Assembly: GCF_036507355.1 (NCBI RefSeq)
Contig: NZ_AP027877.1
Length of the DNA stretch: 64,000 nt
DNA from: Escherichia coli
GTDB taxonomy: Bacteria > Pseudomonadota > Gammaproteobacteria > Enterobacterales > Enterobacteriaceae
Direction: 5' to 3' (one strand)
Position 1 is the first letter of the stretch. Each line of letters starts with the position of its first letter. Positions 3,001 to 9,000 of this stretch are shown one piece after another. A program made the position numbers.

Positions 3001-6000
3001 ATCATCGCCCGCAATAGTGTTAATGCTAATCTCGGGCGCGGCGGTATTGACCGTGACGGTCAGTGACTGGCTGCCCGTGTTTCCGGCGCGGTCGGTGACT
3101 GAAACGTTGACAGGATAACTGCCGTCTACCAGACCACTGACAACGGAAGCCGGAACGCCCAGACTCCAGTTGCCGGAACCATCCACCACCGTGGTGTAAT
3201 CCACATTATTCAGCGTCACGGTGACGATATCGCCCGCCTGAGCGCCAGTGACCGTGCCGCTGATAATTTGCGCCTGGATATGTTCCGGCGTGTTAATGAC
3301 GTTATCGGTCGCCACCGGATTAATGGTTACCACCGGCGGCGTGGCATCCACCAGCGCCACGCGCGAAACGCTGCTCGGATTACCGGCGACATCGTTCACG
3401 CTGGCGGTGACCGTAGCGTTGCCGTCAGCCAGTGCGCCCACGTTGGCGGCGGGCACAGTCACGCTCCAGGTGCCGTCTGACTGCACGACGCCCTGATACG
3501 TCTGCCCGTTCAGCGTCACCGTCACCGTCTGCCCCGGCTGAGCGTCGGTGGTGCCGGTGATGGGCAGATCCTGCCCGCTTTCGGCGGCGTTAATGATGTT
3601 ATCGGCGGTCAGTGGATCGATGCTTAAGGCCGAGGCCTGGCTATCGACGGTAATGGTGCGGGAAGTGTTGCCGGTATTGCCGCTGAGATCCGTCACAGAA
3701 GCGGTAATCGCCACCGCGCCGTCAGGCAGATTTCCCATCGCGGCGGCAGGTACCGTCAGACTCCAGGAGCCATCGGCCTGCACGGTAGTGGTAAAACTCT
3801 GTCCAGCCAGGGTTACTGTAACGGTTTGTCCTGTCTCGGCCTGTTGAGTGCTACCGGTAAGGGTCAGTGGCGCACCTTTTTCTGCGCCACTGATAATGTC
3901 ATCGCCGGAGACGGTGTTAATGGTGATCAACGGAGAAACACCGACCAGCGTGATTGCTCGAGACGCCGCGCCAGTATTTCCTGCAGCATCTGTCACGGTG
4001 ACGAAAATCGTATTGGCTCCGCGATCCAGCGTGCGGGTTACCGCCGGGTCCAGCGCCACATTCCAGCTGCCATCTGCCAGCACGATGCCCGTCAGGACAT
4101 GAGTGCCCAATTTCACCGTTACCGTATCGCCTGGAGAAGCACCGCTGACTTGTCCGGAGATGATCTGCGCGACGGCCTGCTCGGCATTATTAAGAATATC
4201 GTCGCCCGCCACGGTATTAACACTGACCACGGGTGCTGAGGTGTCTACCGTGAAATTCGCGCTGTGGCTGGTGGCGTTCCCTGCCCGATCGCTGACACTG
4301 GCATTGACAGCGTAATTACCCTCCGCCAGTGCCTGGACTTCCGTGGCAGGCAGCGTCACTTGCCAGGTTCCGTCGCTACCGACGGTTGCTGTATGGCTTT
4401 TCCCGTTGACGGTCAGTGTTACGGTTTGCCCCGCTTCTGCATTCGACGTGCCGCTCAGTACCAGCGCGACGTTATGTTCCGCAGCACTGATGATGTTGTC
4501 CTGAGCGATGGTGTTGATGGCAAGCGTTGGCGGTTGGGTATCGACCGTTAGCAGCTGCGCGCCGGTGACCGTATTGCCTGTGGTGTCTTTCCCACTGACC
4601 AGTACCGCCTGATTCCCTTCGCCTAACGCCTGTGCATCGGCGGTCGGTACTGGTACGCTCCAGGCACCGTTAGCGCCTACGCTGGTGGTGTAGGTTTTGC
4701 CGTTAAGTGTGACGGTGAGTTCTGTTCCCTGTGCCAGATGACTACTGGTGCCAGAAAGCGTAAACCCGGCGGCCTGTTCGCTGGCGTTAATAATGTTATC
4801 GCCTGCGGTGGTGGCAACCTGCACGCTGGCCTGACTATTGTCGATGGTTAACGTTATCGAACCGGCGTCAGTGATGGTACTGCCGACAATTTGCACCACT
4901 GACCAGGTATGTTCACCTGCACTTTGCGTGGGTAACGAGACACTCCAGTGACCGTTATTGTCTACCTGAGTACTGGCAATAGTATTGCCGTTACTGTCTT
5001 TAATCTGAATAGTCGCCCCCGCCTGCCCGCTGCCGCTAAAGGTTGGCGTGGTGTCATCGGTGATGTCATTGGTGGCGAGAATGCCGCGCTGATCGCCCTG
5101 ATTATCGGTAACTAAAAATGATGGTGTGGCGTTGCCAGGCTCAGCAGGTGGCGTAGGGTTATTAATCACTTCTGTTTTCGAGTCGCCATCGCCACCGCTT
5201 GCCAGCAGTGCACCAAGCGCGCCACCACCTACCGCCGCCCCCGCCAGCCAACCCCACGGGAAGGCGCTGGTCTGAGCAACGGTATCAAGAAATGGCGCAA
5301 TGCTTTCAATCGCAGTGGTCTGGGCAGTCAGTTCTACGGGGGCTAATCCACCCGCAGCAGTATCGGCAAAGGTGATATGGGTTAGCTGTTGACCATCGGC
5401 AAACACCAGTTCCGATTGTTCAGCTGTATTCGCCGCTTGCAGGAAATAACCGTTGCAGCGGATCACCGTGCCGTCCTGCATATAGATCAGCAGGTCATTT
5501 CCTTCACGGACGTAACGCGCAACGGCAGAGGCCTGAGCATGAACCTGCACCACGGAAGGCTCATAAATAACAACCGTGACGTCGCCAGGATTAATCAGCG
5601 TTTGTTTGACGGATGTTTTACGCGAAATAACATCAATAATCAGGCTCATAATAGCATTCCTGATAAATGGCGCACATCCTTAGCGAGTCCATTTATCTAA
5701 ATAAGACAAAGGTAATCACTTAACAACGGCCCACTATTAATAATGGCAGGATTATTTCAAGTCGGGTAAGTCGTTGTATAAGCCCTGTTTAATTCCCGCT
5801 AATGGAATAAGGTTATTCACCGCAGCGGCATAATTTACGGCGGCGACCCAGCCATCATAATTGGCATTTATTTCAGCCGATTGCGCCTGAAAGACATCTT
5901 GCTCGACGGTTAATAGATCATTCAGACTGCGTTTACCCAATTTATATTCATTTTGGTACACATCTCGCGTTTTGTGCGCACTTTCGGATTGCGCTAAACC

Positions 6001-9000
6001 GGCTTCTTCGCGACCCCGTGCGCCGGTCCAGTTCGCATATGCCACAGACGCTCGTTGCAGCACATCCAGTTTTGCCTGTTCGACCTGCGAGGCAGAGATT
6101 TTTTGTTGCCCTTCGGCCTGTTGCACCTGGGCAGAAACCGCGCCGCCCTGATACAGCGGCGCGTTAACGTTCAGTTGTAGCTGATCATCCCAATACGAGC
6201 GGTCGCTGGTCTGGTAGCGCGTTTTACCCCCCTGAATACTGAGCGTTGGCCAGTATTGCGCTTTCGTTTTTTCCACGCCGTACTGTGCTGACTGGCGTAA
6301 GTTTTCTGCCGCCAGCACCAACGGGATGGACTGGTAATCAATATTCTTCAGCGATACCGGCTGCTCGGCTAATTCAGCAGGTGGCGCGGCTATCGCCTCC
6401 GGCTGTACGCCAGTGAGCACCGCCAGTTGCGCTTTGGCGCTCGCCATCTGCGCCTGATATTGCTCCAGCGTTGAGCGCATTCCAGCAATACGCGTCTGGG
6501 CCTGTAATTCATCCGACGATGAGTTCAGGCCAGCGTTAGCGCGCAATGCCGCCATGTTGTAGACGTTTTCCAGCGAGTGAATATTGCGTTGAGCCGCATC
6601 GCACAAAGCCTGATAACGACTGACTTCCATGTAGGCAGTCGCCGTTTTCTCTGCAACATCGGTTAAGGTTGCCATCAATTTAAAGCGGTAGCTGTCACGG
6701 GCGGCAGTTTGCAGATTGATATCGTTGTTAGTTTTACCAAAGTCATACACCAGTTGTGTCAGGGTTATGCCATACGAAACGTTGTTATCAAGCCTGCCGC
6801 TGGAGTCCGTTTGTCGGGACGGCCCCGCGTTGCCGGTTAATCCAACGTGCGGATACCAGGCACTTTTGGCTTCATCAATTTGCGCTTCGCCAATGCCTAT
6901 CTGCGCCGCCTGTTGAGTGACGTCGGGATTTCGCGCAAAGGCGCGTAATATACTTTCCTGTAAAGATAATTGGGCAACTGGCGTTACCGCTGGGGCATTC
7001 GCCCATTGTGGCAGCGGTGCAGCAATTGCAGCTTCTCCCATCACCATAAAACTTATAAAAAAAATAAGTCCATTATTTTTACGGTTTTTAAACTGGAATC
7101 GCGCCATAGGTAAGTCACTTCCTTCCAGGTCATTATTTTAACTGGTTTTTATAACCAGTCTCATTTTATTAAGAAGGGTAATAACTTGTGCATCTCTTTT
7201 GTCGATCATTGATATGGGCAAAGAAATGCAGCTAAAAAGCTTATACGTTATTTATTTAGAATACACTACGACTTTTAGATTACCATCATACACATTAAGA
7301 ATAATCCACGGTAATAAGTGATTAGCATCACAGATTTATCGCGTATATATCATTTTTTTGTGACTTATTTATTAAAGGAATAAGAAAGGTAATTTGAATT
7401 AAAGACAAAGGCGCAGTACAGGCAGTACTGCGCGCAGAGAGGTGTTATACGGTTTTATTGCGCTTCATGACCATTGCCACAATAAGGCTGAGTAAGATTG
7501 CACCAATAATCCATATCAACGCACGGCTGCCCTGGGACCACAGGCTGTAGATAAAGCCAACGATCACCAACAACATCACCAACGTACCTACGATAAGAAT
7601 CGGCAACGAGGCGTGAATATCATGACGCAGGCGGATCGCCACCACAAACACCGCCAGATAGCAAATCAAAAAGGTGGCGCTGGCAACGCTGGCGAGTGAG
7701 CCTAAATTTAATGCCGCCGTCATCAGCATAATCAACACCACGACAATGATGTTGCCCCAGGTACTCTGCCGCCACAGGGATTTATTCATTAGCTTCGGCA
7801 GTTCGCGTTCGCTGCCCATGTTGTCCATGATGTTAAACACGGCGAACAGGTTCGCGTTGATGGCTGAAGCCGTCGCCAGTAAAGCGCCGATGACGACGAT
7901 CACATAACCCACATGCCCGAGCAGCGGAGAAGCTGCCTGCGCTACGGCGGTATCGGCATATTTTTCTAACTCTAATGCCGATACATCGCTAAGCAAAACC
8001 AGCGCCAGCGAGATATAAAGCAACGTGGTAACGCCAATCGCCACCAGAAACGCCCGTGGCATAATGACCTGCGGATCTTTCACTTTATCCGCCGCGTTCG
8101 CCATCATGCCAAAGCCCGCATAGGCAAGGAAGGTTATCCCGATACAGGAGAAGAACGCACCGGAGCTAGGGGGCGCAGAGACGGAAATATGCGCCGGTTG
8201 CAGCGACCAGACACCGGCAATAATCAGCAATAACAGGATCATCATTTTAATGCCGACGAGGATCACTTCCAGCCGCCCTACCGCATGGTTGCTTAAGGAG
8301 TTGAAAAGCGTCATCACCGCAATGATCCCCAACGCGTAGAGCAAAATAAGGTGCTCCTCCTGGCTGCCTTCATGCAAAAACTGCACGGCATAAGCGCCAA
8401 AAGCACGGGCGACCATGGCGATGCTCACCGCCAGCGTCAACAGGTACAGTAACGAGAGCGCCAGCGAAAAGACGCCGTTTCCTAATCCGCGACGAAAGAA
8501 GTCGATAATGCCGCCATTGCTGGGATAGCTCGCCCCCAGACGCGCATAGGCATAACCGGAAAACATCGCCACAATACCGCCAAAAGCAAAGGCGACCCAG
8601 GTCGAGGCTTCCATTAGCAACGCAGCCTGCCCCAGCAGCGCGAAGATCCCCGCCCCCACCATTGCCCCAATACCGATGGAAACGACATTCCATAGACCGA
8701 GGGGTTTGTTACCGTTATTACCTTCCGTGTTCATCATGATCAGCCCTTAAACACGTTATAGCCGAGTTGCTTAGCGACCGATGCCACCATTTTTTGACCG
8801 CGAACACTGTTGCCTTCTTCGTCCAGCGGTGGTGAGAACGCGGCAATTCCCATCACTCCAGGGACGACCGCCAGAATACCGCCACCTACACCGCTTTTGC
8901 CCGGTAAACCAACACGATACGCCCAGTCACCGGAGCGACCATACAGCCCTTCCATCATCATTTCGGCCAGAATGTACGGCACGTTGTCGGCCTGAAGAAC

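Follow-up and report, generated by a model that had tools for sequence, protein, structure and literature searches.

The locus considered here raises the question of whether a giant adhesin of Escherichia coli has an outer-membrane channel of its own. The DNA analysed (the window) is a 64,000-nucleotide stretch of contig NZ_AP027877.1 (assembly GCF_036507355.1), and its flanking genes, ybaT, glsA, copA, ybaP, ushA, and fsr, identify it as E. coli chromosome. A TolC-family gene lies there beside the 5' part of the adhesin gene siiEA (Table 1). The locus is O-island 28 (OI-28) of enterohaemorrhagic E. coli (EHEC), inserted between ybaT and cueR, and the TolC-family gene has already been named tolC28 and experimentally characterised (PMC12758282; Gut Microbes, December 2025). 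We consider it very probable that the best explanation as a whole is correct, namely that TolC28 is the dedicated channel of the OI-28 type I secretion system (T1SS); identity, fold, synteny, regulation, and the requirement for adherence are documented here or in the literature. The tolC28 finding itself is already known, both from the Prokaryotic Genome Annotation Pipeline (PGAP) annotation and from the 2025 experimental paper. The present analysis goes modestly beyond PMC12758282 in three respects: the LssB/LapB class of the transporter, the reading of rtxA28 and rtxB28 as one interrupted siiEA, and the occurrence of the island in enteroaggregative E. coli (EAEC) 042.

Is tolC28 a genuine channel gene? 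According to the window list of open reading frames (ORFs) and the translation, it starts with ATG on the minus strand and encodes 451 aa. The NCBIfam model TIGR01844 (TolC family outer membrane protein) matched TolC28 at 416.4 bits (cutoff 225.15) over positions 2-412 of its 414, and Pfam recognised two OEP domains at residues 49-233 and 264-430 (7e-27 and 2e-20). The AlphaFold model of the monomer, which was built from a 30-sequence alignment and reached a predicted local distance difference test score (pLDDT) of 85.3, displayed the canonical architecture, with four strands (in 87-121 and 288-315) and long helices (125-232 and 323-429). In Foldseek, the top matches of this model were TolC, ST50, and Klebsiella TolC, with E about 1e-21, template modelling scores (TM) of 0.7-0.78, and approximately 20% identity, and a PDB sequence search aligned the whole protein with OprM and TolC (about 1e-12 to 1e-15). 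Since the TIGR01844 score, the two OEP domains, and the predicted TolC fold coincide, the family assignment is far beyond chance, and tolC28 is an extra TolC-type outer-membrane channel gene. The more specific models did not accept the protein: it scored 94.8 bits with the NodT/OprM lipoprotein model TIGR01845 (cutoff 210), 67.3 bits with the TolC equivalog NF007002 (cutoff 495), and well under the cutoffs of all named efflux-channel models in NCBIfam. In the N-terminus, MARFQFKNRKNNGLIFFISFMVMGEAAIA/AP, four basic residues are found together with a hydrophobic core that spans residues 13-24 and with an AxA site (AIA/A). There is no Cys before residue 169 and therefore no lipobox, so that inspection of the sequence and hydropathy point to a Sec signal peptide without lipobox, unlike that of NodT/OprM. 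Furthermore, tolC28 was intact in ten of ten E. coli alleles, with a median pairwise ratio of nonsynonymous to synonymous substitution rates (dN/dS) of 0.042.

The neighbouring genes indicate what this channel would serve. In RefSeq, the gene for a TolC family outer membrane protein is followed by siiEA ('BapA-related adhesin SiiEA'), a T1SS permease/ATPase gene, an HlyD family adaptor gene, and cueR. The adhesin begins with MSLIIDVISRK and continues into tandem immunoglobulin (Ig)-like repeats of about 100 residues, which Pfam assigns to Big_13/Big_6 and which match region II (RII) of the ice-binding adhesin MpIBP in the PDB (4p99, E 4e-40; 5irb, E 2.5e-23); the full gene is annotated at 20.4-20.8 kb for about 6800-6900 aa. 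Its N-terminus was recognised in NCBIfam by NF047714 (adhesin_SiiEA, 510 bits) and NF033677 (BapA prefix, 69 bits), and its C-terminus, taken from an O157 genome, by TIGR03661 (type I secretion target domain). The island ATP-binding cassette (ABC) transporter (record L002, 597-2759) scored 837 bits with TIGR03375 of the LssB family (cutoff 693), whereas it failed the HlyB-family model (390 bits, cutoff 725); by these scores, the transporter published as 'hlyB28' is assigned to the LssB/LapB (adhesin) class and not to the HlyB class. The HlyD-type adaptor fits TIGR01843. From the matches of the transporter, the adaptor, and both ends of the adhesin, the OI-28 system therefore appears to be self-contained and of the adhesin-exporting T1SS class. 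The first-pass annotation had proposed a self-contained secretion system in which a separate 451-aa TolC-family protein with its own signal peptide is encoded 102 bp upstream of the adhesin on the same strand. All of this agrees with the TolC-family gene, siiEA, LssB-type transporter, and HlyD-type adaptor of the island, with the ORF, domain matches, and N-terminus described above, and with the spacer at 5650-5751; that the shared strand is the minus strand is newly added.

The same association was found outside E. coli. The homologues of Salmonella enterica (69% identity), Enterobacter (60%), and Budvicia (57%) lie directly 5' of a gene for a giant protein with a BapA_N domain. In Pseudomonas segetis (44%) and Halomonas binhaiensis (42%), the order is outer-membrane protein (OMP), BapA_N adhesin, ABC transporter, and membrane fusion protein (MFP), and in P. 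chlororaphis (44%) and one metagenomic relative (35%) it is giant protein, OMP, ABC transporter, and MFP. Because relatives down to 42% identity also adjoin BapA_N-type giant adhesins, TolC28 is not taken to be a drug-efflux channel. Many relatives carry the Joint Genome Institute (JGI) label 'adhesin transport system outer membrane protein', which we take to be the KEGG term for LapE. In the neighbour-joining tree, TolC28 fell within an enterobacterial adhesin-linked clade, the adhesin-linked proteins of Pseudomonas and Halomonas came next, and E. coli TolC stood far outside. Clustering with drug-efflux OMPs would have spoken against a role in adhesin secretion; tree and gene contexts instead placed TolC28 with adhesin-linked proteins, in a comparison which took in TolC28 relatives with TolC as outgroup and left out Pf0-1 LapE, S. 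Typhimurium BapB, and SiiC.

The published phenotype is in line with this assignment. The tolC28 deletion mutant grows normally, but loses Caco-2 adherence, pedestal formation, and mouse colonisation, all of which are restored by tolC28 in trans (PMC12758282). Complementation in trans points to a defect which polarity alone does not explain, and to a lack of compensation by the housekeeping TolC, which presumably cannot substitute owing to adaptor specificity. We propose that an RstA-activated, RpoS-dependent promoter, which the island itself carries just 3' of the ybaT terminator, drives tolC28, and that tolC28 probably shares one transcript with the genes for SiiEA, the LssB-type transporter, and the HlyD-type adaptor. 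TolC28, a putative non-lipoprotein trimeric TolC-family channel and the outer-membrane part dedicated to the OI-28 T1SS, would be exported by Sec, inserted into the outer membrane, and docked onto the adaptor/ABC complex. SiiEA would be recognised via its C-terminal VCA0849-type signal and threaded out through TolC28 with the C-terminus first. The folded BapA_N domain may then stall in or under TolC28, so that SiiEA would remain surface-bound, in the manner of LapA in LapE.

To what extent is this system shared among E. coli strains? By megablast, 958 of 5426 complete E. coli genomes (about 18%) carried tolC28, always as one chromosomal copy and labelled by RefSeq as 'TolC family outer membrane protein'; the carriers include O157:H7, O55:H7, O145, EAEC 042, and numerous isolates from humans and animals. 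The housekeeping tolC was present separately in 5422 of the 5426 genomes, and its product is 25% identical to TolC28; tolC28 is thus an accessory paralogue. About 18% of complete E. coli genomes, including those of the EHEC lineage of O157, O55, and O145, accordingly possess a self-contained T1SS with its own channel, which matters for adhesion and colonisation biology. The TolC28 protein of the window matches an E. coli TA280 entry at 100% identity, and the nearest DNA is that of O145 RM9872 (99.9%). In EAEC 042, tolC28 lies at NC_017626.1 579409-580764 with 98.3% identity. OI-28 was reported to be absent from the EAEC and extraintestinal pathogenic E. coli (ExPEC) genomes surveyed in PMC12758282, and an earlier study (PMC3256949) noted siiEA in UMN026 and one EAEC isolate. 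Contrary to the reported absence from EAEC, OI-28 is also present in EAEC 042.

The state of siiEA in some of these strains raises an alternative. In a sample of nine genomes, siiEA was intact in four (N3, Ecol_316, B1, and 746; 6925 aa) and annotated as a pseudogene in five (O157:H7 F3113, O145 RM9872, EAEC 042, A16, and E600003). The lesions are a TGG to TAG change at codon 1027 in O157:H7 F3113 (window 2569-2571), TAG at codons 1241 and 3395 in O145 RM9872, a frameshift near codon 445 in EAEC 042, and frameshifts in A16 and E600003. Since siiEA is interrupted in O157/O145 and intact in other strains, rtxA28 and rtxB28, the 'two RTX proteins' of PMC12758282, are apparently two halves of one interrupted ORF, which is not discussed in that paper. 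The first half (rtxA28) would carry the N-terminal domain and no secretion signal, and the second (rtxB28) would have the reverse. The locus might therefore be decaying in the broken lineages (O157:H7, O145, and EAEC 042), with TolC28 functionless or recruited beyond the anchoring of a full-length adhesin. The independence of these amber codons and frameshifts and the five broken against four intact genes of the sample weigh on the side of decay, and against a channel that holds an adhesin. On the other side, deletion phenotypes are reported in both O157 and O145, and tolC28 is intact in ten alleles at a dN/dS of about 0.04, yet most of this divergence is older than the breaks. Moreover, the window siiEA has no stop in its 1883 visible codons, with Trp and Glu at the O157 and O145 stop sites. 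We regard a decaying locus as unlikely. For the broken lineages, the C-terminal piece would have a signal without a stopper, and tolC28 is constrained and needed for colonisation; TolC28 might then export a C-terminal fragment that is released and not anchored, or it might act on a second substrate or in a second role, instead of holding a surface adhesin, a suggestion which is offered tentatively and with low confidence.

The dedicated-channel explanation further supposes that tolC28 and siiEA are expressed together. The 309-nt region 5' of tolC28 is AT-rich, and it is wholly island DNA, since the alignment of island-less genomes begins only at query position 418 (window 7417). The RstA box in it, TAATTCAAATTACC, has one exact match in the window, with 0.02 expected by chance. 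This box was mapped upstream of tolC28 by electrophoretic mobility shift assay (EMSA) and chromatin immunoprecipitation (ChIP), and RstA, Ca2+, and RpoS co-regulate tolC28 and the adhesin gene (PMC12758282). A terminator-like hairpin parts ybaT from the tolC28 unit; the island edge at 7416-7417 falls within this hairpin. The consensus scan found no terminator-like site after tolC28 in the spacer to siiEA, and the RNA structure of the spacer was not significant (z = -1.54). Downstream, the gap between the adhesin and ABC genes is 3 nt, and the ABC and MFP genes overlap by 4 nt. The first-pass annotation had made tolC28 the first gene of the adhesin operon, and the hairpin before it, the lack of a terminator after it, and the weakness of the spacer promoters are consistent with this position; a single transcript with the siiEA, ABC, and adaptor genes is probable.

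Alternatively, tolC28 and siiEA could be separate transcription units, with the adhesin promoter in the conserved spacer and tolC28 as a mere neighbour. Several observations favour this and speak against a common unit. The spacer, of 102 or 108 nt, is nearly invariant among E. coli alleles although the synonymous divergence (dS) of tolC28 reaches 0.38, which suggests an unrecognised regulatory element. The spacer has two promoter-like matches, both weak (9/12), at 5780..5751 and 5760..5733, and no others. The gap is about 980 nt in Budvicia, and in P. chlororaphis the adhesin gene precedes the OMP gene. However, the promoter-like matches of the region are not enriched over shuffles (7 versus 3.7 +/- 1.9, within the chance range), no terminator follows tolC28, four other genera space the OMP and adhesin genes by 20-120 nt, and both genes are co-regulated by RstA, Ca2+, and RpoS with a single mapped RstA site, 5' of tolC28. 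Separate units are judged to be quite improbable. The spacer differences among alleles are limited to a short indel patch close to the 5' end of the spacer.

That TolC28 acts as an outer-membrane factor of general use or for drug efflux, serving resistance-nodulation-division (RND), major facilitator superfamily (MFS), or ABC pumps, to which the adhesin is only incidentally adjacent, is scarcely credible, for although a dedicated adhesin channel has to reckon with a fold and about 20% identity common to OprM, OprN, CusC, and TolC and with OprM as the best PDB sequence match (60 bits), TolC28 falls under the NodT cutoff (95 versus 210) and far under every efflux equivalog, has no lipobox, remains linked, across orders, both to BapA_N adhesins and to ABC transporters of the LssB type, and shows on deletion an adherence phenotype with unaffected growth.

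If TolC28 is the dedicated channel of SiiEA, does the adhesin also plug it? In the LapA system, the folded N-terminal module is periplasmic, LapE is threaded by a flexible segment with Gly on its flanks, and the site at which LapG cuts is of the TAAG type; ABC transporters that serve LapA-like adhesins make up a class of their own, and MpIBP provides the structural basis of the plug model (bioRxiv 10.1101/198937). In OI-28, an OMP, an LssB/LapB-class ABC transporter, and an MFP are likewise encoded with a giant repeat adhesin, as in LapA/LapE-type systems. Residues 1-120 of SiiEA were predicted as a compact all-beta fold (pLDDT 82-94), the Gly/Ala-rich segment that follows was predicted to be disordered (pLDDT below 50), and in the alignment both the BapA_N domain and this segment are conserved in orthologues. 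The class of the transporter, the compact domain, the disordered stretch, and the conservation of both parts all favour a plug. Four results count against it or do not bear it out. No lapG or lapD was found between ybaT and cueR or in the flanks examined of the relatives. In the NCBIfam scan, the SiiEA N-terminus matched BapA-prefix models only, and no LapA-type retention-module family. Residues 1-140 had no PDB sequence match, only the repeat region being found (MpIBP RII), and neither sequence nor fold search linked a solved retention module to the N-terminus. Finally, TAAG is absent at the equivalent position in five orthologues (Salmonella, Enterobacter, Budvicia, P. segetis, and Halomonas). 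The TAAG of SiiEA had been picked out with the LapG-site pattern [T/A/P]AA[G/V] of bioRxiv 10.1101/198937; as it is not conserved in orthologues, it was rejected as a LapG site and is probably fortuitous. The earlier suggestion that a retention module plugs the dedicated channel is thus borne out only in part: the adhesin possesses a folded BapA_N domain and a Gly-rich linker, but lapG and lapD are missing from the island and TAAG is unconserved. It is a plausible inference that TolC28/SiiEA works like LapA/LapE; that OI-28 is a Lap system is not established.

Two further observations concern the surroundings. The stop of the HlyD-type adaptor (MFP) gene overlaps the start of cueR by 4 nt on the same strand (record L002, 3928-3931), and the copper regulator gene cueR may be read through from, or translationally coupled to, the secretion operon in island strains. 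The Rfam scan of the whole window found naRNA4/REP-type elements, sroB, the dnaX frameshift element, signal recognition particle (SRP) RNA, and sraA, which are ordinary E. coli RNAs, and nothing near tolC28.

Table 1. Features of the tolC28-siiEA locus; positions refer to the window unless a record is named.
Feature	Position	Strand	Basis or remark
siiEA 5' part, 1883 codons, open to window edge	1..5649	-	ATG at 5649; translation
SiiEA Gly/Ala-rich segment, residues 134-157, WLAGAAVGGGALGALLASGGDG	5179..5250	-	candidate channel-threading segment
SiiEA BapA_N 'prefix' domain, residues 5-132	5254..5637	-	PF22783, 3e-19; candidate periplasmic stopper
SiiEA TAAG, residues 97-100	5350..5361	-	LapG-site pattern match
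tolC28-siiEA spacer	5650..5751	-	102 nt
tolC28 (z0608 homologue)	5752..7107	-	451-aa TolC-family outer-membrane channel, OI-28 T1SS
tolC28 signal peptide, residues 1-29	7021..7107	-	sequence features, hydropathy; low pLDDT there
AT-rich island-specific regulatory region 5' of tolC28	7108..7416	-	30.7% GC, 309 nt
Shine-Dalgarno-like GGAAGGAAG	7118..7126	-	10 nt 5' of tolC28 ATG; read from sequence
Promoter-like sites 5' of tolC28	7192..7163 and 7164..7135		consensus scan
RstA box TAATTCAAATTACC	7388..7401	-	about -294..-280 relative to tolC28 ATG
ybaT terminator-like hairpin, then T-rich tail	7411..7433	-	consensus scan; parts ybaT from tolC28 unit
Rfam matches	12550-12627, 13925-14008, 19688-19765, 27688-27752, 44556-44652, 62305-62400		whole-window scan
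siiEA records	L001 191-20650; L006 1-19898; L007 1-19892		

Among known systems, the LapEBC/LapA system of P. fluorescens (bioRxiv 10.1101/198937; J Bacteriol 2018) resembles OI-28 in having a dedicated TolC-like pore, LapE, beside a giant repeat adhesin, a transporter of the LssB/LapB class, and an adhesin in which a folded N-terminal domain is followed by a Gly-rich flexible linker; LapE and TolC28 are likened here by description and gene setting. It differs in that the OI-28 island and the flanks examined are without lapG/lapD, the SiiEA TAAG is unconserved, and the SiiEA N-terminus matches BapA-prefix models. The repeats of SiiEA resemble the Ca2+-stabilised Ig-like region II of MpIBP from Marinomonas primoryensis, whereas the N-terminus has no sequence or fold match to any MpIBP N-terminal structure. 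With Salmonella BapA/BapBCD, the adhesin shares the designation 'BapA-related' (NF047714, NF033677), the BapA_N prefix, and the Big_13/Big_6 repeats, and the Salmonella enterica TolC28 homologue, 69% identical, has the same OMP-then-adhesin order. In the classical S. Typhimurium locus, bapA comes first and the secretion genes after.

E. coli TolC (PDB 1EK9), a channel for HlyA, colicin V, and other T1SS substrates, has the same fold (TM about 0.7), no lipid anchor, and two OEP repeats. In contrast to it, TolC28 is 25% identical, 42 residues shorter, without the TolC C-terminal tail, accessory (18% of genomes), and substrate-linked. The closest counterpart is the OI-28 tolC28 of PMC12758282, which occupies the same locus between ybaT and cueR with 99.4-99.6% DNA identity and an identical RstA box at the same distance; unlike the O157:H7 case, the window is not from O157:H7, and its adhesin is free of the amber codon 1027.

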